Part shown: positions 4,757-38,799 of the stretch, piece by piece | Numbering within the stretch: the first letter of the stretch is position 1 | Layout: each line of letters begins with the position of its first letter | Source: Acidimicrobiia bacterium | GTDB taxonomy: Bacteria; Actinomycetota; Acidimicrobiia; IMCC26256; JAGPDB01 | Length of the DNA: 40,415 bases | Direction: 5' to 3' | NCBI GenBank assembly: GCA_035329685.1 | Contig: DAOLGI010000001.1 | Location: 33,824 to 74,238 of the forward strand | Notes under the pieces: generated by a model | The model's database searches: none | Told to the model about the DNA's origin: nothing | Seen by the model: the letters and a program-made list of their open reading frames with translations, nothing else | Program-made: the position numbers and the translations under genes

Positions 4757-5110
4757 ATGGCTACTCCAAAGAAGGGTCCACGTCTCGGGCGCGACCCCAA
4801 ACACCAGAAGCTCATTGTTTCTACAATGGCGCGACAGTTCTTCACGCATGGTGCAATGGAAACAACCCTTGCTAAAGCTAAGCACATGCGCCCCGAATTG
4901 GAACGTATGATTACCAAAGCACGTAAGGGAAACAACCAACACGTTCAACGACAGCTCGTTGCTGTTCTTCGTGACAAAGGTGTTGCACACAAGCTCGTAG
5001 AAGAGATTGCACCGAAATACGCAACTCGCCAAGGTGGATACACTCGCATCTTGAAGCTTGGGCCACGTGATGGTGACCGTGCAATGATGGCGCGCATCGA
5101 ACTCGTCTGA
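4757..5110 (+). CDS. rplQ: 50S ribosomal protein L17
   Basis: 117 aa containing GGYTRILKLGPRDGDRAMMARIELV. It sits after rpoA. Confidence 0.95.
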   Translation: MATPKKGPRLGRDPKHQKLIVSTMARQFFTHGAMETTLAKAKHMRPELERMITKARKGNNQHVQRQLVAVLRDKGVAHKLVEEIAPKYATRQGGYTRILKLGPRDGDRAMMARIELV

Positions 5111-5179
5111 GTTTTCTGTCGAACCGCAGGCAAAGCCTGACGGTTCTCGCGGTCGCTCCTCCGATCGCTCCCTGTGACT
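5111..5179 (+). repeat. Rep-B copy directly after the rplQ stop
   Basis: GTTTTCTGTCGAACCGCAGGCAAAGCCTGACGGTTCTCGCGGTCGCTCCTCCGATCGCTCCCTGTGACT. Confidence 0.9.
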
Positions 5180-5180
5180 C

Positions 5181-5244
5181 CATTGTCGACGAGTACGCAA
5201 AGCGCACACGTCTCGCGGTCGCTCGTCCCTCGCTCCCTGTGACT
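5181..5244 (+). repeat. Rep-B diverged tandem copy
   Basis: CATTGTCGACGAGTACGCAAAGCGCACACGTCTCGCGGTCGCTCGTCCCTCGCTCCCTGTGACT. The 3' half is conserved and the 5' hairpin is rebuilt with different bases. Confidence 0.8.
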
Positions 5245-5247
5245 GTC

Positions 5248-5283
5248 GTCATCCTGAGCTTGCGAAGGATCTCCGCGCAGCGG
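5248..5283 (+). repeat. Rep-A left-arm copy
   Basis: GTCATCCTGAGCTTGCGAAGGATCTCCGCGCAGCGG. Confidence 0.8.
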
Positions 5284-5303
5284 GATAAATCGGAGTCACA
5301 AGA

Positions 5304-5382
5304 CTCGATACAAGTGAACGAACTGCTGCGAACACGTTGCTTTTGGGGAGGGCCGCACCTGCACAGCAGGAACGACCCTATA
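5304..5382 (-). repeat. Rep-C minimal unit (5-nt apex) just upstream of truA
   Basis: The minus strand reads TATAGGGTCGTTCCTG-CTGTG-CAGGTGCGGCCCTCCCC-AAAAGCAACGTGTTC-GCAGCAGTTCGTTCACTTGTATCGAG. Confidence 0.85.
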
Positions 5383-5393
5383 GTAGATAACTC

Positions 5394-6209
5394 ATGAAAA
5401 ACTTTCGTGCCATCATTTCTTATAACGGATCCAAATTTCATGGGGTTGCTGAACAGGTGACACAGCCCGGTCAAACACCTGTACGAACAGTTGTGGGGGA
5501 GTTGCGGGCAGTTATTGAGATGGTTGCGCAAGCTAGTCCTTCAATTGTTGTGTCAGGGCGCACCGATAAAGGTGTTCATGCTCGTGAGCAAGTTATTTCT
5601 TTTAGTTTTCCTGAGAATTTAACGATTGATCTTGATCGTCTGATGCATGTGTGCAATAAGCGGTTAGGCCCGGAAGTCGTAGTGCACGAAATAGTGGAAG
5701 CACGCGAAGATTTCAATGCGCGTTATAACGCGAAGGCTCGAACGTATCGCTACTTTATTGATAACAGTGCGCAGGCGAACCTCTTTCTTGCTGACTATGC
5801 GTGGAATGTAAGTGCTCCGCTTGATCTTGATGCTATGAAGAGTGCAGCTAAGTGCTTTGTGGGCGAGCAGGATTTTTCGAGCGTATGTCGCGCCGACGAT
5901 TCCATTTCACACAACATCCGCGAAGTCTTCTCAGCTGATTTTATTGAAGTGGACTACCCTGAAATTTTCTCTATGCCAGCTTTGCAGGGTCAGACCCTGC
6001 AAAGTAGCAGCTTGTTGTGCTTTGAGATTTCGGCCAATGCTTTCTGTTGGCAGATGGTGCGCTCAATTGTCGGAGTTCTCGTTGATGTTGGGCGAGGAAA
6101 AATATCTCCTCATGACATCACTGCTCTCCTCGAGAATAAAGATCGTCGAACAAACACAAGCCAGCTCGCTCCAGCGCATGGTCTTACCTTGTGGCATGTT
6201 AAGTATTAA
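5394..6209 (+). CDS. truA: tRNA pseudouridine(38-40) synthase TruA
   Basis: 271 aa containing GRTDKGVHA (catalytic Asp motif), FCWQMVRSIVG and APAHGLTL. It carries an in-frame repeat fragment at 5980-6003. Confidence 0.9.
   Translation: MKNFRAIISYNGSKFHGVAEQVTQPGQTPVRTVVGELRAVIEMVAQASPSIVVSGRTDKGVHAREQVISFSFPENLTIDLDRLMHVCNKRLGPEVVVHEIVEAREDFNARYNAKARTYRYFIDNSAQANLFLADYAWNVSAPLDLDAMKSAAKCFVGEQDFSSVCRADDSISHNIREVFSADFIEVDYPEIFSMPALQGQTLQSSSLLCFEISANAFCWQMVRSIVGVLVDVGRGKISPHDITALLENKDRRTNTSQLAPAHGLTLWHVKY
5980..6003 (+). repeat. Rep-C-derived palindrome embedded in frame in truA
   Basis: CTTTGCAGGGTCAGACCCTGCAAA is identical over 24 nt to 13437-13460. Confidence 0.85.
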
Positions 6210-7081
6210 ACACGCTCATTTATGAAGGTGCGTTGAAGAAATCGCCTCTCTGATGGATTCCGTGCAGGTTTAAATGCTTCCCGACCATGCGGAGAAACGC
6301 CGTTTACAAAAGCTAGAAACTCTCCAGGTTCAAGAATGATGTCCGTGGCAACATGTTTACATGCAGAAAATAGGCTTAGTAATGCTGATGATTCTCTCGA
6401 TGCGTAGGGCGTATGTGTTCCAGCGGACAGACGAGCGGTGATTCCACTCCCTTTTTGAGTCAATATCGGAACAGGGTTCTTTGTAGGGTCGGACCCTCTA
6501 ACAAAAGTGAACACAGGGCTTCTTAGAATGTCGATAGTTTCTGCATCGAGTTCTGCAAGGACATCGGCTAGCGAGACGACGAGTGTTTTAGCACGCTCAC
6601 CGTTTTTATAACATCCAAGAATTACGATATCGGGTATTTCATCAGTGTCTGGGTTGGATGCTTGATCGGTATGAAAACCAAATCGCTGTTGTGATCCTAA
6701 ACCTGTATTCTTCTTACCGTTGTGACGCTTGAGAGGAAACACGTCTTGTGCAAGAACCCCAAACTGTTGATCCTCTATTCCAAAAGGTGTGCCTAGAGAA
6801 CACGCTATTGCGAGATGCAATAAGCCAAACCGTGTTCGTTCTCGTCGATCATCTGACTGAGGTGCTCGTGGAGCAGGTCTCATTAAATCAGAAGCAAAAT
6901 ACCGTCGTTGTTGATTAGTTAATGTAAGGACAACTTGATCAGTACCTGGGGTAATGGAAGGAACTGATTCTCGTAACATTTCAAGTGCTTCACGCTCCCT
7001 ACCCGGCTTAAGTAGTCTGCGAGGCGCATTAATAGCTAATCCCGCGAAGGTGTCGTCGACATGAATCCGTTCAATTGCCAT
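6206..7081 (-). CDS. Fe(II)/2-oxoglutarate-dependent oxygenase, TauD/clavaminate-synthase-like (possible amino-acid hydroxylase)
   Basis: 291 aa with an HxD facial-triad motif (FHTDQA), a distal His/Arg (SPHGREAF) and GVLAQDVFP, as in CAS-like hydroxylases. It is the only minus-strand gene in the r-protein block. Confidence 0.6.
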   Translation of the reverse strand: MAIERIHVDDTFAGLAINAPRRLLKPGREREALEMLRESVPSITPGTDQVVLTLTNQQRRYFASDLMRPAPRAPQSDDRRERTRFGLLHLAIACSLGTPFGIEDQQFGVLAQDVFPLKRHNGKKNTGLGSQQRFGFHTDQASNPDTDEIPDIVILGCYKNGERAKTLVVSLADVLAELDAETIDILRSPVFTFVRGSDPTKNPVPILTQKGSGITARLSAGTHTPYASRESSALLSLFSACKHVATDIILEPGEFLAFVNGVSPHGREAFKPARNPSERRFLQRTFINERV

Positions 7082-8130: not shown

Positions 8131-8226
8131 GTTAACGAACTGGTAGCTCCATGGGGAGGGTCCGGCCGTGGAAAGGTTGTGACCTTTGTAGGTCACTTTT
8201 CCTTACTTTCCAAGGCCAGACCCTAA
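8131..8226 (-). repeat. Rep-C unit with shortened tail, between rpsI and glmM
   Basis: The minus strand reads TTAGGGTCTGGCCTTGGAAAG..GTGACCTACAAAGGTCAC..CTTTCCACGGCCGGACCCTCCCC-ATGGAGCTAC-CAGTTCGTTAAC. Confidence 0.8.
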
Positions 8227-8262
8227 CTTCGCTGGTCCTCCCGTGACGTTGAAAGGTTTTTT

Positions 8263-9619: not shown

Positions 9620-12600
9620 ATGTGTGGAATCGTTGCCTTCGTTCGTAAACCTACCACTCTCCAACCGGCTGATCTTTCTGATCTGATCGGTGTTCTTGCC
9701 GGCATTGACAAAGAGAGCAATGAAGCATTATTGAATGTTGACAATGATGCATTGTCTACACGTGCAGAGCAATGTATCAGCGTCGGTGGCATCATTACTC
9801 TTGTGAGAGACCCTGTTCTTCGCAAAGAACTGAGCGAACACTCTGATGGTCTGCGTGCTCACGTCGACGATTCTTTGGCTGAAAATATTGACCTTTCTGA
9901 AAACGACAAAGAACACTTGATCGCGCTCAATGATTCATTGTGGAGAATGAGTAAGGATGCTTGTGTAGGCGCACAACAAATTGCAGATCTGATCGGAGAC
10001 ACTTCGAGTTCAAGCGACAATGTGATAACTATCTATAGATCGATCAATCTTGTTCTCCGTAGTATCGATCGTATCGAGGTACGTGGCCGCGATAGTGCTG
10101 GTATCAGCATCTGTCTTACTTCGTTCTCCGATAAACAGCCTGCGTATTTCACATATAGGCGCGCTGCGGAAATTGGAGAACTCGGCGATAACGTAAAAGA
10201 TCTCCGCCGACAGATTTCACAAGACAGAGTTCTTTATGAGGCGATTTCGACTGAGGAAACATGTCACGAAATGGTTCTTGCGCATACACGCTGGGCATCT
10301 ATGGGTGTCATCAGTGACAGCAATACGCACCCGCTTGACTCTTCGGAGATCAATATTGACTCTTCGGTTATTGCATTAGGCGCTCTTAACGGTGACATTG
10401 ATAACCATCAAACGTTTCGTAGTGAATGCTCGATCGATCCTTCGGTAACAACAGATGCCAAACTCATTCCTGTTTTACTCACGCATGAACGAGAGCAGAA
10501 TCCTAAACGTAGTGTGCTTGATTCATTCCGTAATGTTGTGACTAGATTCGAAGGTTCTACCGCAATTGCAGCCGTTACTTCAGACGACCCGTCCAAGCTC
10601 TTGTTAGCTCTGCGCGGTGGAGGTCAGGGCCTCTTTATTGGTTTAGGCGACGATGAATTTATGATTGCGAGTGAACCCTATGGCGTAGTTGAAGTCTCGG
10701 ATCAATATATTCGTGTGGATGGGGAAACGCCATATGATGATAATCCCGATCGTAAAGTTTCTTCCCGAGGTCAGATATTTGCTTTAGATGAAAATTCCGC
10801 CGGCACCTTAGACGGTCTTACGCGAATTGCGTACGATGGAAAAGTATTACCATTGCTGGATTCTGAAATAGTCATTAGTGAAGTCACGACGCGAGATATC
10901 GACAGGGGAGACTATCGGCACTATCTCTGGAAAGAAATTAACGAAGCTCCTCGGAGTTTTGCGACGACTCTTGCTGGAAAGTTTGATCCAACGCATACGT
11001 CTCCCGTTATATCGAACGACATTTTTCCTGATGACTTGGAAAACAAAATTTCTAATGGTTCTATAACTGAAATCTTGATAATCGGCCAGGGAACTGCAGC
11101 AGTTGCAGGTCTTGCTTGTGCACACTTCTTTTCTGCAATAAAAAGTGAACTCACCGTGCGCGCAATATTAGCAACAGAAGTTTCCGGCTTCGGCCTACGA
11201 GACAACATGAAAGATGTTCTTGTCATTGCAGTATCTCAATCGGGAACAACAACAGATACCAATCGTACGGTAGATTTATTGCGTGATCGAGGCGCGAGTG
11301 TTATTGCAATAGTCAATCGTCGCGGTAGTGATCTCACAACAAAAGCCGATGGAGTTTGTTATACCAGTAGCGGTCGTGATGTGGAAATGTCCGTGGCATC
11401 CACAAAAGCCTTTTACGCACAGGTGGCTGCAGGTGCATACTTGGCTATGTCTATTGAGTACATTCGATCACACAAGAGACCATTTGATTCAGGAACGGTT
11501 TCCATTATTTCTCACCTGATCGATTTGCCTGGCAAAATGCGAAAAATCCTGAGCGATGAATCACATCAAAAGATCGCTGACACTGCATATCGCACAATCC
11601 TTTCGCGGCGTTCCTGGGCTACTGTGGGCAATGGAGCTAACTCGATTGCTGCCCGTGAAATCCGAATTAAATCTTCAGAATTATGTTACAAAGCGATTGC
11701 CTTAGATTCCACTGAAGACAAGAAACATATCGATCTTTCATCTGAACCACTCATCGTTGTCTGCGCGACAGGGATGCAGGGTTCTACCGCTGATGATGTT
11801 GCTAAAGAAATAGCCATCTATCGCGCACACAAGGCTTGTCCCATTGTCATCACGGATGATAAGAGTGAGCGATTTGATGAAAGCGGAGAAGTCATTCACG
11901 TTCCGGAATCACATCCGGCCGTGAGCTTTATCCTCGCTGCAGTAGCAGGACATATTTTTGGTTATGAATCAGCTCGTGCAATCGATGAAACGGCGCGAAC
12001 ATTGCGCGAAGCACGCGGGGCGCTTGCGCTTCTTACACCTGAAGAACTTGAATCTTCATCGGCGATGGCCAAGATTAGAAACATACTTCTCGAACCAGCG
12101 AATCATTTTTTTGCACGAATGAACAACAACGAATTCGATGCAATCCTTGATGCCAGTGATGCAACCAACCTCACGAAACTTTATATCGCTCTTACGAGTA
12201 ACCCTGCGCGGCCAGATCTTCTTCAAGAAAACTGCGGAGGTCTCAAGACCGAGCAAGCTCTCGCTAATTGTGCTGTATCTATCTTGACACGCTGTATCGA
12301 TCAGCTCACACGCCCTATCGATGCGATCCGTCATCAAGCAAAGACGGTGACTGTGGGAATATCACGCTCGGACGATACACTTCTTCGCTCGCCATCCGTT
12401 TCGTATCTTCTTGATGCGGGTGTCGGTCGTGATCTCTTGCAGTACACGGTGATTCGTACGCTTTCTGCGCTCGATGAAATGATCGGTTCGATTACTGGTC
12501 ATACCCGCTACCAAATTCAAGGTGATGCCGGGTCAGGTGAAGCAACACTTTCTATTATTGAGCAAAAGGGGAGTGCGGCCTCGCTTACTTCACGAGTGAC

Positions 12601-12937
12601 GAGCAATCCGCTTCTTCGAGGCACCAAGAGCCTCACTGCTCGTGAGCAGACCGTGTGGGTAGCGCAAGGGAAAAGCGATGGTCGCAATGTCATACTTGTT
12701 CCCGAGATTTCCCGCTCTCAAACCATTGGCCTTACTCTTCTTCATATCGATGTGGATGAATCGATTTCGGTCGCTGCTCGTAAACGAGTTCTTGAAGGAT
12801 ATAAACAACGACTTTTTGCACTGCGGGATGCAGTAACGGAAGTTCAAGATACATTTGACGAAAATAGGCTAGGCGAAATTTCTATTATGGAGCTATTGAC
12901 TGACCCTGTTGTCGTACTAGCGCAGCGCTGGTTGTAG
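9620..12937 (+). CDS. Glutamine--fructose-6-phosphate aminotransferase homolog, greatly expanded (1105 aa)
   Basis: N-terminal MCGIV (Ntn Cys), then RGRDSAGI, HTRWAS, LNGDIDN and two SIS motifs (SQSGTTTDT, VASTKAF). A GlmS-type C-tail motif, AKTVTVG, lies at 12338-12358. It occupies the glmS synteny slot after glmM but is about 1.8 times the canonical length. Confidence 0.7.
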   Translation: MCGIVAFVRKPTTLQPADLSDLIGVLAGIDKESNEALLNVDNDALSTRAEQCISVGGIITLVRDPVLRKELSEHSDGLRAHVDDSLAENIDLSENDKEHLIALNDSLWRMSKDACVGAQQIADLIGDTSSSSDNVITIYRSINLVLRSIDRIEVRGRDSAGISICLTSFSDKQPAYFTYRRAAEIGELGDNVKDLRRQISQDRVLYEAISTEETCHEMVLAHTRWASMGVISDSNTHPLDSSEINIDSSVIALGALNGDIDNHQTFRSECSIDPSVTTDAKLIPVLLTHEREQNPKRSVLDSFRNVVTRFEGSTAIAAVTSDDPSKLLLALRGGGQGLFIGLGDDEFMIASEPYGVVEVSDQYIRVDGETPYDDNPDRKVSSRGQIFALDENSAGTLDGLTRIAYDGKVLPLLDSEIVISEVTTRDIDRGDYRHYLWKEINEAPRSFATTLAGKFDPTHTSPVISNDIFPDDLENKISNGSITEILIIGQGTAAVAGLACAHFFSAIKSELTVRAILATEVSGFGLRDNMKDVLVIAVSQSGTTTDTNRTVDLLRDRGASVIAIVNRRGSDLTTKADGVCYTSSGRDVEMSVASTKAFYAQVAAGAYLAMSIEYIRSHKRPFDSGTVSIISHLIDLPGKMRKILSDESHQKIADTAYRTILSRRSWATVGNGANSIAAREIRIKSSELCYKAIALDSTEDKKHIDLSSEPLIVVCATGMQGSTADDVAKEIAIYRAHKACPIVITDDKSERFDESGEVIHVPESHPAVSFILAAVAGHIFGYESARAIDETARTLREARGALALLTPEELESSSAMAKIRNILLEPANHFFARMNNNEFDAILDASDATNLTKLYIALTSNPARPDLLQENCGGLKTEQALANCAVSILTRCIDQLTRPIDAIRHQAKTVTVGISRSDDTLLRSPSVSYLLDAGVGRDLLQYTVIRTLSALDEMIGSITGHTRYQIQGDAGSGEATLSIIEQKGSAASLTSRVTSNPLLRGTKSLTAREQTVWVAQGKSDGRNVILVPEISRSQTIGLTLLHIDVDESISVAARKRVLEGYKQRLFALRDAVTEVQDTFDENRLGEISIMELLTDPVVVLAQRWL

Positions 12938-12939
12938 CA

Positions 12940-13332
12940 ATGATTGTGGGTGTGGGAATAGATATTGTTGACATCGCTCGCATGCGTTTGGCCGTCGAGC
13001 GCTCGCCAAAAATCATCGATAAAATTCTTACGGAACAAGAACAAAAAGAATTAGACGTTTTTTGTGACGGGAAAACAACATCTAATGATGTGAGATTTAT
13101 TGAATCATTATCTGCACGCTTTGCAGCTAAAGAAGCAACGGTTAAATCTCTGGGTCTTTCACTATTTACAGTGGGTCTCCATTCGATCGAGATTAAAAAA
13201 AATAATGATGTTCCTTATATTGATTTTCCAACACATAGAACATTTACTAAACGAAGACTTTCATTTACATGTTCGCTCACTCACTCTGGTACCACTGCCG
13301 CTGCTGTTGTGATTGCAGAATACAACGACTGA
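12940..13332 (+). CDS. acpS: Holo-[acyl-carrier-protein] synthase
   Basis: 130 aa starting MIVGVGIDIVDIARM and containing FAAKEATVKS. Confidence 0.85.
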   Translation: MIVGVGIDIVDIARMRLAVERSPKIIDKILTEQEQKELDVFCDGKTTSNDVRFIESLSARFAAKEATVKSLGLSLFTVGLHSIEIKKNNDVPYIDFPTHRTFTKRRLSFTCSLTHSGTTAAAVVIAEYND

Positions 13333-13337
13333 GCCGC

Positions 13338-13406
13338 TTTTATTGTCGAACCGCAGGCAAAGCCCGACGGTTCTCGCGGTCGCTCCTCCGATCGCTCCCT
13401 GTGATT
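13338..13406 (+). repeat. Rep-B copy 5 nt after the acpS stop
   Basis: TTTATTGTCGAACCGCAGGCAAAGCCCGACGGTTCTCGCGGTCGCTCCTCCGATCGCTCCCTGTGATT. Confidence 0.9.
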
Positions 13407-13460
13407 GCAGGGCCAGGCTCTGGTTGTGGAAAACTTCTTTGCAGGGTCAGACCCTGCAAA
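13407..13460 (+). repeat. Rep-C-related hairpin without tail; its right arm is a perfect 23-nt palindrome
   Basis: GCAGGGCCAGGCTCTGG-TTGTGGAAAACTTCTTT-GCAGGGTCAGACCCTGC. TTTGCAGGGTCAGACCCTGCAAA (13438-13460) is self-complementary. Confidence 0.7.
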
Positions 13461-13480
13461 ATAACAAGTGGAGGTAGAGA

Positions 13481-16211: not shown

Positions 16212-16730
16212 TTGACGGAAGTGATTTTTAGACGGGACAATGTTTCCCGAGAGAACATGTCTGAAATGGCTGCTGACTTAGGCGCATTTCTTTGTGGAGG
16301 CGATGTCGTCATCCTCATTGGTGACATCGGCGCAGGTAAAACTACTCTGGTTGCTGAAATGGCTCCTCTCCTTGGCGCGCATGTTCAGGTGACATCTCCT
16401 ACCTTCGCGATTGTCGCGGAGTATGAATTGGCTAATGAATATCAAGGGATCAAGAAAATTATTCACGTCGATACCTATCGTCTTGTCGGAGTCAACGAGC
16501 TTTACGATCTTGGTTTTGAAACAATCTTTGCTCCTCATGCTTTGACGATGATTGAATGGGGTGAACGTATCGAAGAGTATATTGATCGAAATCATTTTCG
16601 TCTCATTATTGAAGAACAAACGCCTGACACGCGTTCGTTTGTTTTCGAAGTCGTTGGCAATTTAGATAAAGAGAGAAGTTCGCTTCTCGAAAATCGCTTA
16701 CTCGAGAGTGGTTGGTATCAAAATGTCTAA
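16212..16730 (+). CDS. tsaE: tRNA t6A37 biosynthesis ATPase TsaE
   Basis: P-loop GDIGAGKTTLV and SPTFAIV. It sits in the tsaE-tsaB-rimI-tsaD cluster. The start (TTG 16212) is uncertain; ATG 16257 is an alternative. Confidence 0.85.
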   Translation: MTEVIFRRDNVSRENMSEMAADLGAFLCGGDVVILIGDIGAGKTTLVAEMAPLLGAHVQVTSPTFAIVAEYELANEYQGIKKIIHVDTYRLVGVNELYDLGFETIFAPHALTMIEWGERIEEYIDRNHFRLIIEEQTPDTRSFVFEVVGNLDKERSSLLENRLLESGWYQNV

Positions 16731-19680: not shown

Positions 19681-19731
19681 GTCATCCTGAGTGCAACGAA
19701 GGATCTAGATTCCTCGCAGGCTCGGAATGAC
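19681..19731 (+). repeat. Rep-A complete two-armed copy (51 nt)
   Basis: GTCATCCTGAG-TGCAAC-GAAGGATC-TA-GATTCCTC-GCAGG-CTCGGAATGAC. Confidence 0.9.
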
Positions 19732-23281: not shown

Positions 23282-23297
23282 TCCGCTGTTCTTGCAG

Positions 23298-23424
23298 TTA
23301 GGGTTGTCCCTTGGAAAAACGGAGAAATACAGAGAATCTCACATGAGATTTCTCATACGTTTTCCAAGGGGCGGCCCTCCCCTTAAAACAACTAAACAGC
23401 AGCAGTTCGTTCAGTTGTACCGAG
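23298..23424 (+). repeat. Rep-C full unit after guaA
   Basis: TTAGGGTTGTCCCTTGGAAAAACG..apex..CGTTTTCCAAGGGGCGGCCCTCCCC-TTAAAACAACTAAAC-AGCAGCAGTTCGTTCAGTTGTACCGAG. Confidence 0.9.
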
Positions 23425-27098: not shown

Positions 27099-27153
27099 GT
27101 CATCCTGAGAGCACATACGTCATCCTGAGTGCAGCAAAGGATCTTTAGCTGCA
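27099..27153 (+). repeat. Rep-A copy with duplicated GTCATCCTGAG head
   Basis: GTCATCCTGAGAGCACATACGTCATCCTGAGTGCAGCAAAGGATCTTTAGCTGCA, which includes a TGCAGC/GCTGCA stem. Confidence 0.85.
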
Positions 27154-27220
27154 ACACTGGGTGAAAACTTTTCATCTGATCGATTTGAATGAGCAACACT
27201 GGCCTATTAGAATGTCTCGA

Positions 27221-28309
27221 ATGACCGTTTTAGGAAGAGATCACCCAGAAGATGTAAGAACATGGATGGAACTTCAACATGGTCAATGGGTAACGCCAAC
27301 CGAAATTCAGCGAGCTATTCTCAATCACTGGGGAATCACTGATGTCGTTATCGGTGAGAGAATGGCAACAGGTGAAGCAACTGAAGTGTACCGCGTGCAC
27401 AAAAGGCCTACCGAAGGCCAGGATGACGGACTTTTAGGCTATCTCAGGATTGCTAATCATGGTGGTCTGAACGATGCGGAAATTATATTAATGGAGGCAT
27501 GCCGTGCTGCAGGCTTGCCCAGTGTGGAATTATTACATTCTTCTCCATATCAATTACGCAACGGTCAAATATCGTCTGATCTGGGCGCAACTTTCCTTGC
27601 TCCAGCGGTAGGTCTAAACCTTGCTGAGGCTATTGAGCAAGGTACCTACGACATTGAAGTAATAAATACGGCGTTGCGTAATGCGGGCGCGTTGCTAGCT
27701 CACATTCATAGTTTACCTGATGTTAATGTCGGTGTTGCTCAAGCGGTCGAGCGGGGTTTGGCGAGAAGTCAGAGAGATGATTTTAGTCGTGACTTAGCTT
27801 TTCTTCGAAGGACGATGCAGTACATTCCAGAAGCAACTCCTCTTTTACAACACATTAAACAAGCAGCACGTGATCATAAAGCAGGACTTGCGGATATACA
27901 GAGCAAATATCCACGCGCATTGGTGCATGCCGACTTTGATCCGAAGCATCTTTTCTTTGATCCATTGACTGGCGATATTACATCTCTTATCGATTTTGGC
28001 GGTGCACACGTAAATGTTGCGCATGCCGATTTCTTTCATTGGAAAACATTTTCTCCTATGACGTACGAGGTTTTTCTTGATGCTTATCTCGATGAGAGAT
28101 TTGGCTTTGACTTAATTGATGCGCAAGAATTCGAAGCTGAAATTGACTTGGCATATGCGGCTTGTAATTTAAGGTCAGCATGTGTACGGATGGATCAGCT
28201 GCTTGTAAATGAAGCAGTAGGCCATTTACATAATTGTGCAAGCGCTTGTGATCGTATTGCGCCCAGGGTAAAGGTACCCACAGCATCTGAAGGTGCCCTG
28301 TCCTATTAA
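27221..28309 (+). CDS. APH/choline-kinase-family phosphotransferase-like protein, paralog 1
   Basis: Contains a Gly-rich ATGEATEVYRV, the catalytic-loop-like HADFDPKH and IDFGGAH. I chose the start at the ATG shared with paralog 2; the ORF remains open upstream to GTG 27161. Confidence 0.6.
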   Translation: MTVLGRDHPEDVRTWMELQHGQWVTPTEIQRAILNHWGITDVVIGERMATGEATEVYRVHKRPTEGQDDGLLGYLRIANHGGLNDAEIILMEACRAAGLPSVELLHSSPYQLRNGQISSDLGATFLAPAVGLNLAEAIEQGTYDIEVINTALRNAGALLAHIHSLPDVNVGVAQAVERGLARSQRDDFSRDLAFLRRTMQYIPEATPLLQHIKQAARDHKAGLADIQSKYPRALVHADFDPKHLFFDPLTGDITSLIDFGGAHVNVAHADFFHWKTFSPMTYEVFLDAYLDERFGFDLIDAQEFEAEIDLAYAACNLRSACVRMDQLLVNEAVGHLHNCASACDRIAPRVKVPTASEGALSY

Positions 28310-28370: not shown

Positions 28371-29447
28371 ATGACCGTTTTAGGAAGAGACCATGAAGAT
28401 GATATTGCTCTTTTTTTCAGAAGCCAACATCGTATATGGACAACTCAAAAAGGTGCACGTAAGAAGATTCTCGCAAGTTGGGGGATAAAAAACTTTTCTA
28501 TAGGGAAACGAATTGCTACCGGTGAAGCGAGCGAGGTTTACCCTGTTAACGATAAATCAACTAAAAAATTGTTGGGTTATTTACGAATTGCTCATCGGGG
28601 AGCAGGGAGTCGTAACGGATGCGAAGTCACTCTTATGAAGGCTTGCGACGAGGCAGGTTTGCCCAGTGTGCGATTATTGCATTCTGCGGATTTGTCACGG
28701 GCAAATGGTAAATCCCCTATTGAAGGAGCAATAACCTTTGTAGCCCCTGCACGTGGAATGAATCTTCAAGAGGCCATTTTGATGCCGGGTATAGCTCAAG
28801 GGCTCATTCGAAATGCAGTTCATAATTCAGGCATTTTTCTCGCAGAGATGCATTTGCTCAGAGACCGCGATCCTGCAGTGGAAAAAATGGTAAGTAAATT
28901 TTCATATGCAGAAGCCTCAACTCAACTGGGTAAATTTTTTAATAAAGCAAGAAAAACGTTACGGCGTTTAGATGAGACTAAAGAACAATTCGCAGCTATC
29001 GACGACGCTTTCCTCCAGGTATGGGAAGGGCTTGCACGTCTTTATCAAGAATATCCTCTTGTTTTAATACATTCCGATCTTGAACCGAAACATGTTTTCT
29101 TTAATATCAATCGGGGTGAGCTTCTAAATGTGATTGATTTTGGTAGCGCGCATGTCAATATTCCACACTTCGATTTGCTCAACTGGAAAACTTTTTCGCC
29201 GGAAACATTCGACGAATTTGCCCAATCATATCTCGATGCCCGATTTGGAAGTGACTACGAGAGAGCATCGCACTTCATGGAGGAACTTGATTTTGCGGAG
29301 ACTGTGTGGCAATTAGATTGGGCGCTCTATCGCATGGAGCACCTCCTCGTTGCTGAAGCATGCGGGCATGTGCAATTGGCGGGCGAAGCATGTCGCCGCA
29401 TTATTGCAAGAGATTTACAACCACATCGAGATTTGGGACATCCGTAA
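28371..29447 (+). CDS. APH/choline-kinase-family phosphotransferase-like protein, paralog 2
   Basis: 358 aa, collinear with paralog 1 (ATGEASEVYPV, LLGYLRIA, HSDLEPKH, IDFGSAH). Confidence 0.6.
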   Translation: MTVLGRDHEDDIALFFRSQHRIWTTQKGARKKILASWGIKNFSIGKRIATGEASEVYPVNDKSTKKLLGYLRIAHRGAGSRNGCEVTLMKACDEAGLPSVRLLHSADLSRANGKSPIEGAITFVAPARGMNLQEAILMPGIAQGLIRNAVHNSGIFLAEMHLLRDRDPAVEKMVSKFSYAEASTQLGKFFNKARKTLRRLDETKEQFAAIDDAFLQVWEGLARLYQEYPLVLIHSDLEPKHVFFNINRGELLNVIDFGSAHVNIPHFDLLNWKTFSPETFDEFAQSYLDARFGSDYERASHFMEELDFAETVWQLDWALYRMEHLLVAEACGHVQLAGEACRRIIARDLQPHRDLGHP

Positions 29448-34837: not shown

Positions 34838-34938
34838 TTAGGGTTGTTCCTGGTGCCAGGAGCGTAGCGACTGAGCAGCAGGTGCGACCCTCCCCATAAG
34901 CAACGCATCTACAGCAGTTCGTTCAGTTGTATCGCGAC
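34838..34938 (+). repeat. Rep-C full unit after purH
   Basis: TTAGGGTTGTTCCTG..apex..CAGGTGCGACCCTCCCC-ATAAGCAACGCATCT-ACAGCAGTTCGTTCAGTTGTATCGCGAC. Confidence 0.9.
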
Positions 34939-34940
34939 TC

Positions 34941-35007
34941 GTGGTCCGCAGGTACGGCCCTCCCCTAAATCAACTGTGTTGCAGCAGAACGTTCAGTTGT
35001 TTCGAGG
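34941..35007 (+). repeat. Rep-C half unit in tandem with the preceding full unit
   Basis: GTGGTCCGCAGGTACGGCCCTCCCC-TAAATCAACTGTGTT-GCAGCAGAACGTTCAGTTGTTTCGAGG. Confidence 0.8.
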
Positions 35008-35017
35008 TTTTCCATTT

Positions 35018-35072
35018 GTCATCCTGAGTGCAAAGAAGGATCGAGATTCCTCGGCCAACGCCTCGGAATGAC
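35018..35072 (+). repeat. Rep-A complete two-armed copy (55 nt)
   Basis: GTCATCCTGAG-TGCAAA-GAAGGATC-GA-GATTCCTC-GGCCAACGC-CTCGGAATGAC. Confidence 0.9.
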
Positions 35073-37325: not shown

Positions 37326-38534
37326 ATGGCTACGGCTCTCACGCTTAACGATGACCTCACTCTGAATGTTCCTGTCGACCCCATCATTCCTTATATCGAA
37401 GGCGATGGAATTGGAATAGATATCTGGCCAGCAGCTCAAGCGGTCTTTGATGCTGCGATTGAAAAATGTTTTGGTGGAACTCACAGCGTTGCTTGGTTGA
37501 AAGTACTTGCAGGTGAAGCTGCTTTTAATGAAACAGGGGAATGGCTTCCCCAGGACACGGTTGATGCTTTTGAAAAGTATCTTGTGGGAATCAAAGGACC
37601 ATTGACCACTCCTGTTGGTGGCGGTATTCGGAGTCTCAATGTGGCACTCCGTCAGATACTTGATCTCTACGTATGTTTGCGTCCTGTGAAATACTTCCAA
37701 GGAGTTCCTTCACCTGTGAAGAATCCCTCTGCTGTTGACATGGTGATCTTTCGAGAAAATACGGAAGATGTCTATGCTGGTTTCGAAGTAGAAGTCAATA
37801 CTCCAGAGTCGAAGAAATTGCTCGAGTTTTTGTTGGACACTTATGGTTGGAAAATCCGTGCCGATTCTGGAATAGGAATCAAACCTGTCAGCATCACCGG
37901 TTCGAAACGACTTATTCGCGCTGCGATGAAATATGCAGTCGAACGCAATCGTCGAAGCGTGACTTTGGTACATAAGGGAAACATCCAAAAATTTACGGAA
38001 GGCGCTTTTCGCAACTGGGGTTACGACGTTGCGCGCGAGGAATTCCCAGATGTACTTGTCAGCTGGGATGATTGCGGTGGTGAACCGGGAAACAAAATTC
38101 TTGTTCAAGACGTCATTGCAGATAATGCTTTCCAGCAAACGTTGTTGCGTCCTGAAGAATACGATGTTCTTGCCACTTGCAATTTGAATGGCGATTATCT
38201 ATCAGATGCTTTGGCTGCCCAAGTCGGTGGGATTGGAATTGCCCCTGGTGGAAACATTAATTACGTCACAGGTCACGGGATTTTCGAAGCCACTCACGGA
38301 ACTGCTCCAAAATATGCAGGGCAAAATAAAGTCAATCCTGGCTCGGTCATTTTGTCAGGTGTATTGATGTTTGAACATCTTGGCTGGTTTGATGTTGCTG
38401 CAATGATTACGAGTTCCCTTGAGCAAGCAATTGCAGACAGAATTGTTACCTATGACTTTGCGCGCGCAATGGATGGAGCAAGCGAAGTGGGCACAATGGA
38501 GTTCGCACAAGCCATGATCGACCGCATGACTTGA
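37326..38534 (+). CDS. icd: NADP-dependent isocitrate dehydrogenase (homodimeric type)
   Basis: 402 aa containing [45 protein letters not shown] and [13 protein letters not shown]. Confidence 0.95.
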
Positions 38535-38603
38535 GTTTATTGTCGAACCGCGGGCATAGCCCGACGGTTCTCGCGGTCGCTCCTCCGGTCGCTCCCTGTG
38601 ATT
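38535..38603 (+). repeat. Rep-B copy directly after the icd stop
   Basis: GTTTATTGTCGAACCGCGGGCATAGCCCGACGGTTCTCGCGGTCGCTCCTCCGGTCGCTCCCTGTGATT. Confidence 0.9.
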
Positions 38604-38724
38604 CGGTCTGACCTTGGAAAAACGGAGAAAACAGAGAATCTCACAAGAGATTTCTTCTACGTTTTCCAAGGTCAGACCCTCCCCAAACTAACGATGTAGC
38701 AGCAGTTCGTTCAGTTGTATCGAG
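38604..38724 (+). repeat. Rep-C full unit fused to a Rep-B copy after icd
   Basis: CGGTCTGACCTTGGAAAAACG..apex..CGTTTTCCAAGGTCAGACCCTCCCC-AAACTAACGATGT-AGCAGCAGTTCGTTCAGTTGTATCGAG. The apex is about 90% identical to 23322-23357. Confidence 0.9.
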
Positions 38725-38741: not shown

Positions 38742-38799
38742 CGGACATCTAGAGATTCTTCGTTTCACTCAGAATGACGGGAGCCGGATGAGGATGACA
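38742..38799 (-). repeat. Rep-A-like copy overlapping the 3' end of the ABC ATPase gene (boundaries approximate)
   Basis: The minus strand reads GTCATCCTCATCCGGCTCCCGTCATTCTGAGTGAAACGAAGAATCTCTAGATGTCCGCGC. Its CTGAGTGAAACGAAG core is identical to 1705-1719. Confidence 0.7.

Follow-up and report, generated by a model that had tools for sequence, protein, structure and literature searches.

A hairpin-bearing repeat, probably of REP-like kind, in an uncultured Acidimicrobiia-type actinobacterium and its relatives

A short element, Rep-B, directly follows the TGA stop codon of icd in the stretch of 40,415 nucleotides analysed here (the window), and further units follow rplQ and acpS. What kind of element sits so close to the ends of genes, and is it bound to the stop codon itself? 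We find that Rep-B is a genuine, structured, lineage-specific repeat, a new family of REP-like kind. Our favoured reading, which we hold to be probable, places it among the small dispersed repeats of REP-like type, carried by an uncultured Acidimicrobiia-type actinobacterium together with its relatives. It is probably mobile, and probably also transcribed into the 3′ UTRs of its neighbours.

The window contains exactly four Rep-B units, all on the + strand. Unit 1 (5111–5179) abuts the TGA of rplQ (5108–5110), is of the standard type with a GAACCG stem and scores 94.3 bits with a covariance model. Its hairpin (5121–5146, + strand) consists of an outer stem of 6 bp, a bulged A, an inner stem of 5 bp and an AAA loop, and is seen in RNA and DNA folds as well as by covariation. 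Unit 2 (5181–5244; 60.8 bits) lies head-to-tail with unit 1 and is of a diverged type; it retains the hairpin that had been described for it, TACGC-AAA-GCGCA at 5188–5212, without the bulge, and its tail reads TCGCTCGTCC-CTCGCTCC. The acpS unit (13338–13406) starts 5 nt past the acpS TGA (13330–13332) and has an A/C mismatch in its hairpin (13348–13373), and the icd unit (38535–38603; hairpin 38545–38570) abuts the icd TGA (38532–38534). The upstream genes, identified by their Pfam lists, occupy 4757–5110 (rplQ), 12940–13332 (acpS) and 37326–38534 (icd). The distances of 0, 5 and 0 nt past TGA agree with the 0–5 nt given in the earlier note, and the junction TGAG..TTT(A/T)(T/C)TGTCGAACC is read as described there at all three genes. 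Its count of four copies is likewise borne out by the sequence and by the covariance model: run on the whole window with filters off, the model returned 96.6, 95.4, 94.3 and 60.8 bits, with the next match at 10 bits, and each 30-nt half of Rep-B gave three matches at ≤3 mismatches, against 0.00 in shuffled sequence.

The conserved unit is 65–70 nt long and has three parts. First, a T-rich leader ends in the tag TGTC directly 5′ of the stem; this tag is carried by 12 of the 15 units that include the 5′ part, and the other three read AGTC in the copy behind purH of the congener described below, TATC in L046 and CTTC in the second unit of L064, whose degenerate first (extra) unit carries CGTC. 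Second, the hairpin follows the pattern G-NNNNN-C-N-GGC / RRA / GCC-N-G-(A)-NNNNN-C, with 11 bp, one bulged base on the 3′ side and a 3-nt loop. The first stem pair is G–C in 14 of the 15 units with both arms, and A–U in L064. The form reported for the window, GAACCG-CAGGC-AAA-GCCTG-A-CGGTTC, is present at 5121–5146, 13348–13373 and 38545–38570, and its second inner pair varies as reported, being A–T at 5128/5138, G–C at 38552/38562 and A/C at 13355/13365. Lastly, the C/T-rich tail of ~30 nt consists of CTCGCGG, one to at least three TCGCTCC-type repeats and then CTGTGATT. In the window it lies at 5147–5179, 13374–13406 and 38571–38603 (+ strand) as TCGCGG, two TCGCTCC-type direct repeats and CTGTGA(C/T)T, in keeping with the earlier description of G(G/A)TCGCTCC twice before CTGTGA(C/T)T. 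The number of tail repeats varies from one in L002 to at least three in L052 (3–75), and there are two tail types differing by a 1-nt indel. A second helix in the tail, GCGGTCG/CGATCGC, was considered and rejected: it is invariant, without covariation, and is absent from units with one repeat or the second tail type. Since covariation is lacking and the pairing is lost when the repeat number changes, the tail is read as a direct repeat and not as a helix.

The hairpin is strongly supported by covariation. Its outer stem changes sequence at nearly every locus (GAACCG/CGGTTC, GCAATG/CATTGC, GTTACG/CGTAAC, GAAGCA/TGCTTC, and GTTGCG/CACAAC with one mismatch), and the flanks are near-invariant. In a model-based alignment of 17 units from five genomes, substitutions on both sides have occurred at eight of the 11 pairs, and 93.9% of cells pair, compared with 73.8% in shuffles, none of 500 of which reached the observed value. 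Sliding the 3′ partner by 1–3 columns left 20–42% paired. A MAFFT alignment, which is not fitted to the structure, still gave six of 11 pairs changed on both sides (0/500 shuffles). The hairpin that had been proposed from compensatory changes among the window copies is thus upheld. The A/C mismatches on the + strand would be G–U pairs on the − strand, and one shared variant accounts for three of these four mismatches. The three standard window units fold as RNA at −30.1 (z −3.5), −25.1 (z −1.2) and −32.3 kcal/mol (z −2.7), and DNA folds reproduce the same hairpin; the RNA fold of the diverged unit at 5181–5244 is indistinguishable from shuffles (z −0.4). An intrinsic (Rho-independent) terminator was rejected, the hairpin being followed by UCUCGCGG and by no U-tract. 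No promoter-like site, and on neither strand a terminator-like site, was called inside the window units, so the statement that Rep-B is not a classical terminator stands. No Rfam family matched the window at the gathering score, nor 5090–5400 at E ≤ 1; this agrees with the sequence not having been recognised at first reading.

The contig of the window was recovered in several independent metagenome assemblies. Its gene order, secY-adk-infA-rpsM-rpsK-rpsD-rpoA-rplQ-truA-rplM-rpsI-glmM-glmS-acpS-alr-...-tsaE-tsaB-rimI-tsaD-groES, is one that we take to be actinobacterial, and homologues of its TruA and Icd at 54–80% identity carry Acidimicrobiia or Acidimicrobiales names in their sources. The congener is the MAG GCA_964391505.1 (L001, L002, L052 and L062), which is syntenic with the window and 81% (TruA) and 97% (Icd) identical to it. 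This MAG is titled 'uncultured Burkholderiales bacterium', yet it has actinobacterial gene order and Acidimicrobiia protein matches, and the label is probably wrong. The more distant relatives include SRR21362750_196 (TruA 65%, Icd 86%), GCA_964516875.1 (TruA 64%, Icd 85%) and an activated-sludge contig (Icd 89%). Two features of the window's genes may be recorded here. The GlmS-like ORF at 9620–12937, with GATase_6 and SIS domains, encodes 1105 aa (1105–1135 aa in all relatives), presumably nearly twice the usual length of GlmS, and no Pfam match is listed for the additional portion. Two APH (aminoglycoside-phosphotransferase-like) paralogues stand in tandem at 27161–28309 and 28371–29447, with DNA stretches 78–87% identical, at a position where the congener has a single copy.

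Beyond the window, 16 more units were found on the same contig, in the congener MAG and in three more distant relatives, mainly by scanning orthologous regions of the relatives with the covariance model. Together with the window's four this makes 20 units, spread over 11 independent loci; the five related genomes that carry them contributed ~0.3 Mb of sequence. Downstream of rplQ, a sense dimer is present in both the window and the congener (L052 9144–9284). Sense units downstream of acpS and icd occur in the window only, and one downstream of purH, after TGA-GGC, occurs in the congener only (L062 8536–8609). Two units lie downstream of tRNA genes: in L001 of the congener the unit ends at 2613, next to tRNA-Tyr at 2615–2695, and in L046 the unit runs from 1969, next to a tRNA at 1970–2039. 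The spacer between the divergent genes for a solute-binding protein (SBP, −) and mdh (+) is occupied in four species, with at least three units in the window's genome (L003 14803–14994, just beyond the window end), one in the congener, two in L064 and one in L065. Antisense units are found in the rplU–rpmA spacer of the congener (L002), with a one-repeat tail, and in the atpG–atpD spacer of L031, where the unit overlaps the final 8 codons and the stop of atpG. The remaining loci are at contig starts, upstream of a glyoxalase gene in the congener (L052 3–75, with at least three tail repeats) and upstream of truA in L055 (a partial unit). In L031, the ATP synthase gamma gene (10259–11251) has a C-terminal extension of ~30 aa, whose last 8 codons and stop derive from the antisense Rep-B.

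Most copies are co-oriented with the upstream gene. The multi-unit loci (5111–5244 in the window, L052 9144–9284 and L003 14803–14994) are all head-to-tail, and no inverted Rep-B pair was seen in the window. Five contigs start or end inside Rep-B units, as a multicopy repeat would cause in short-read assemblies. Searches of viral contig, plasmid and phage collections gave no Rep-B match. A 21-mer scan of a genome collection had two copies among the matches listed, both in one MAG. In a metagenome scan with TCTCGCGGTCGCTC-N0-13-CTGTGA, chance accounted for 38 of the 40 loci listed, a good many of them falling within a single conserved coding motif; among these 40, L031 and L046 alone were genuine copies. 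A protein search with the unit translated in six frames, aimed at spurious ORFs over copies, found nothing that scored.

Comparison of orthologous sites shows turnover of Rep-B within the time that separates congeners: copies arise, disappear or give way to others, one by one or in head-to-tail arrays. The window's acpS–alr spacer, at 148 nt, exceeds the congener's 74 nt by the Rep-B unit, and the acpS site is also empty in three further relatives. No unit stands behind icd in the congener, L064, L065 or L066; conversely, purH has a unit in the congener and none in the window, L064 and L066. Copies therefore come and go at these three sites. At rplQ the window's first unit is of the GAACCG type and the congener's is of a GCATTG type that has the other tail; the remainder of the spacer is ~85% identical. 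Five near-identical GAACCG-type units at five non-orthologous loci in two species look like a young subfamily. Other copies persist. The orthologous second rplQ unit differs between window and congener at four stem positions, which form two compensated pairs (A–T to G–C and G–C to A–T), with zero uncompensated stem changes (chance <1e-3 by simple arithmetic). At SBP/mdh the hairpin persists in four species and the tail decays. The compensated orthologous copy suggests that pairing matters where the unit sits, although compensated changes could also come from quasi-palindrome template switching or gene conversion between copies.

The earlier note had further proposed that Rep-B may contribute or select the stop codon. 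All sense copies beside a coding sequence, four out of four (rplQ, acpS, icd and the congener's purH), follow TGA-G. About 12 of the 44 ORFs in the window end in TGA (a tally made after one spurious ORF was swapped for rplQ), and given this share the hypergeometric probability that all three window copies follow TGA is ~0.017. The window's Icd has 402 aa and ends ...ATG ACT TGA with the unit directly behind, whereas Icd of the element-free relatives (the congener, L064, L065 and L066) has 401 aa and ends ...ATG TAG or TAA. The 16 closest Icd homologues also have 401 aa, except for one 413-aa match; the added Thr (ACT) of the window lies at the Rep-B junction. The stop of purH is TGA only in the unit-bearing congener and TAG in the window, L064 and L066. 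Judged from these comparisons, TGA at icd and purH is the derived state, coinciding with the element. RplQ keeps its C-terminus ...IELV and the position of its stop whether the element is present (TGA) or absent (TAA in L056, TGA in L058, TAG in L060). At atpG, the antisense unit in L031 supplies the stop. That the element contributes or selects the stop is thus plausible where it stands in sense behind a coding sequence, but Rep-B is not stop-bound in general: two copies lie at tRNA 3′ ends, two are antisense in spacers and one array occupies a divergent promoter region. Copies placed without regard to stops were what the earlier note had named as refuting the association, and these loci are of that sort.

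Much of the closeness to stops is explained by how tightly the genes are packed. Native spacers in the relatives measure 0–11 nt (9–11 nt for purH–folD and 0–6 nt for the convergent icd/ABC pair), so an insertion between such genes must touch a stop. The small spacers do not account for the order within repeat mosaics, where Rep-B is the stop-proximal member in every case. Units are flanked by TGA...GTGA and by T-runs, and tandem units begin right after the preceding GTGA; either a TGA forms part of the element itself, or insertion takes place on the 3′ side of a target that is a TGA or a T-run. The sole alignable pair of filled and empty sites, that at acpS, permits a TGA or TT duplication and proves neither.

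How might such an element spread and be tolerated? By analogy with RAYT or IS200/IS605-type transposases acting on REPs, a trans-acting enzyme would recognise the tag, hairpin and tail of Rep-B, and mobilisation of this type is the most plausible mechanism. Insertions would survive at the very ends of genes; two comparisons suggest that the element brings or lands on TGA there, which would leave the upstream protein intact or altered by one residue. Co-oriented copies are probably transcribed into the 3′ end of the upstream gene, where the stem-loop may serve as a 3′ barrier or processing structure, as for REPs elsewhere. No transposase or HUH gene was seen in the inspected loci, which in the congener amount to ~57 kb and in the source genome to ~44 kb (<5% of either), nor was a transposase found among the unannotated ORFs of L001, L002, L052 and L062. 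Rep-B has no terminal inverted repeats, its 5′ end (G)TTTATTGTCG and 3′ end GCTCCCTGTGATT not being complementary, and shows no unambiguous target-site duplication, as the flanking TGA...TGA or TT...TT may belong to the target or to the element.

The closest described class is that of the CGTC/TGTC-tagged REPs, which takes in Neisseria dRS3 and Rickettsia RPE-4/-6 (Di Nocera et al. 2013, PMC3733652); Rep-B falls in none of its four defined families. These REPs are 20–40 bp long and have an unpaired terminal CGTC tag (variants TGTC and CCTC) flanking a stem of 8–9 bp, A/T first and second pairs, a loop of 4–5 nt and a CCA-like tail; they are extragenic, lie ≤20 bp from the 3′ end of the upstream ORF, often provide stops with their termini, occur mainly as head-to-head dimers and have no known dedicated transposase (PMC3733652). 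Rep-B resembles them in the tag TGTC beside the stem (CGTC in one L064 unit), in mostly A/T pairs near the base of the stem, in stem sequences that vary between subsets, in its position near upstream ORF ends, where it may supply the stop, and in having no known transposase. It differs in its 11 bp stem with a bulge, its 3-nt loop, its first pair, which is G–C in 14/15 units, its length of 65–70 nt, its 30-nt C/T-rich tail with direct repeats in place of a CCA tail and its actinobacterial host. Its singletons and head-to-tail arrays also set it apart from the inverted dimers of both REPINs and CGTC REPs, and this arrangement counts against the REP reading.

Two other comparisons bear on mobility. 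Like the REPIN–RAYT system of γ-proteobacteria (GTAG REPs), Rep-B is a hairpin-bearing, non-autonomous and vertically persistent family, with subfamilies of different stems and turnover between close relatives; unlike it, Rep-B has neither a GTAG tag nor an inverted doublet, and the ~100 kb inspected contain no RAYT gene. The comparison with palindrome-associated elements of the IS200/IS605 type is based on IS608 and ISDra2. Like IS200/IS605-derived elements, Rep-B lacks terminal inverted repeats, has a subterminal hairpin that is imperfect and contains an extrahelical base, and apparently inserts 3′ of a short motif resembling its own 3′ end (...TGA | unit ...GTGA | next unit), which would also account for the head-to-tail arrays. 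Candidate target motifs are TGA, CTG or a T-run. Rep-B differs in having one convincing hairpin instead of one per end, in the absence of a visible TnpA and in an orientation that is not uniform relative to highly expressed operons.

The strongest rival, to which we give perhaps one third to one half of the credence of the REP-like reading, is that Rep-B is a cis-acting RNA module of the host: a U-tract-independent terminator, an RNase processing site or a 3′-end stabiliser, rarely spread by duplication and kept by selection at the ends of mRNAs and tRNAs. Sense units begin 0–5 nt from the 3′ ends of four protein genes and two tRNA genes, the stem changes in the orthologous copy are compensatory, the SBP/mdh unit is kept in four species, and the flanks are conserved more than the stem. 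A change of the outer stem at nearly every old locus is also unusual for a copy-and-paste family, and fits long residence under structural constraint, as a host function predicts. Against such a module, two antisense copies sit inside the highly expressed rplU–rpmA and atpG–atpD operons, one array lies upstream of mdh and not behind a gene, close relatives do without the element at rplQ, acpS and icd, and it is gained or lost at essential genes between congeners. Moreover, a U-tract and a terminator-like call are both absent, and as the A/C mismatches could be G–U on the opposite strand, the strand is not settled.

A reading that unites mobility with function is more speculative still, and we regard it as rather unlikely. 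Rep-B would be a gene-end-seeking element that some single-strand or site-specific enzyme integrates exactly at stop codons and tRNA 3′ ends, rewriting the stop to TGA as at icd and purH, and that then works as a U-tract-independent signal for forming or protecting 3′ ends. If this were true, the insertion mechanism, besides selection, would read gene boundaries, in a lineage with almost no intergenic DNA.

Two further readings are very improbable, and to about the same degree. According to the first, the hairpin ~10 nt past UGA is a recoding signal for readthrough or selenocysteine-like insertion. The spacing from TGA to hairpin is a constant 10 nt at rplQ and icd, and all four coding-adjacent copies follow TGA, but the spacing is different at acpS and purH, copies also abut tRNA genes, stand antisense or lie in promoter regions, and the in-frame continuations are unrelated (9 codons at rplQ, a long unrelated tail at icd) behind housekeeping proteins that have no conserved extension. 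The second compares Rep-B to MIRUs, in which a mini-ORF translationally coupled to the flanking genes makes operon insertion neutral. At its ends this mini-ORF overlaps with the stop and start codons of the genes on either side (PMC12548453). MIRUs are co-oriented with their flanking genes in units of 50–100 nt. They reportedly sit in mycobacterial operon spacers at gene boundaries, part of this picture being said to go back to Supply and colleagues in 1997. The host of Rep-B is likewise an actinobacterium, its units stand at gene boundaries and as direct head-to-tail tandems in operon spacers, and a frame through the unit begins at icd with a TTG that overlaps the stop (TTGA). The copies share no conserved frame, however: leaders differ by 1 nt (purH) and 5 nt (acpS), the tail types by the 1-nt indel, one frame of the icd copy is closed by TAG and another frame of the rplQ copy by TGA, and no unit end overlaps a downstream start codon; what defines Rep-B is its covarying hairpin. 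That chance resemblance or faulty assembly lies behind the pattern is extremely improbable: repeats can be collapsed or misjoined when metagenomes are assembled from short reads, and several contigs do break within units, but the same junctions recur in independent assemblies from different samples (L003, L004, L005 and L048), orthologous copies exist in other species and shuffles predict 0.00 matches.

Several known types of element were also tried and rejected. A MITE bounded by TIRs is discounted by ends that are not complementary and by the lack of a proven fixed-length duplication, and a bacterial SECIS or readthrough signal by unrelated frames past TGA and by copies that follow tRNA genes. 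There are no R″/R′ cores of an integron attC site and no CRISPR spacers, and the resemblance to group II intron domain V is a loose one of the hairpin only, with no Rfam match.

To our knowledge, REP-type repeats are well studied in Proteobacteria, hardly in Actinomycetota and not in uncultured Acidimicrobiia. Rep-B, taken as a REP-like repeat, offers a clean case, since filled and empty orthologous sites can be compared between congeners; its stem evolves by compensated changes between fixed flanks, and the stop codon of the host gene changed where the element arrived. If its preference for gene ends turns out to be mechanistic, two questions would be touched: how repeats are tolerated in compact genomes, and what defines 3′ ends that lack a classical terminator. 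In practice, Rep-B breaks metagenome assemblies and creates spurious ORFs.

Rep-B shares its spacers with other repeats. A second family, GTCATCCTGAG-N6-GAAGGATC, occurs at 19681–19705, 27119–27143 and 35018–35042 (+) and at 38754–38778 (−), with variants at 133–173, 1686–1726 and 5246–5275, one copy standing right behind the rplQ Rep-B dimer; with its CGTC tag and a stem that begins AT, it resembles a textbook CGTC-tagged REP. A third family, GCAGCAGTTCGTTCAGTTGTATCGAG, is linked to a GGGGAGGG/CCCTCCCC block and is found in both orientations, at 5304–5329 and 245–362 (−) and at 23399–23424, 34911–34936, 34981–35006 and 38699–38724 (+); it is in tandem after purH and lies downstream of Rep-B at both rplQ and icd. 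A MITE-like long hairpin, GGTCTGACCTTGGAAAAACG...CGTTTTCCAAGGTCAGACC, with arms of ~20 bp, is present at 38604–38684, directly 3′ of the icd Rep-B copy, and at 23295–23382, with related arm fragments at 460–481 and 8207–8228. In the congener, a perfect palindromic repeat, AAAAGGACTGTCCTTAT...ATAAGGACAGTCCTTTT, adjoins Rep-B at two loci (L062 8615–8660 and L052 95–140). Lastly, a palindrome, TTTGCAGGGTCAGACCCTGCAAA, occurs at 5980–6009, 6479–6508 and 13437–13466; the copy between acpS and alr is kept in the congener (L052 ~16545–16570) with changed stem bases, and may be a native spacer hairpin.
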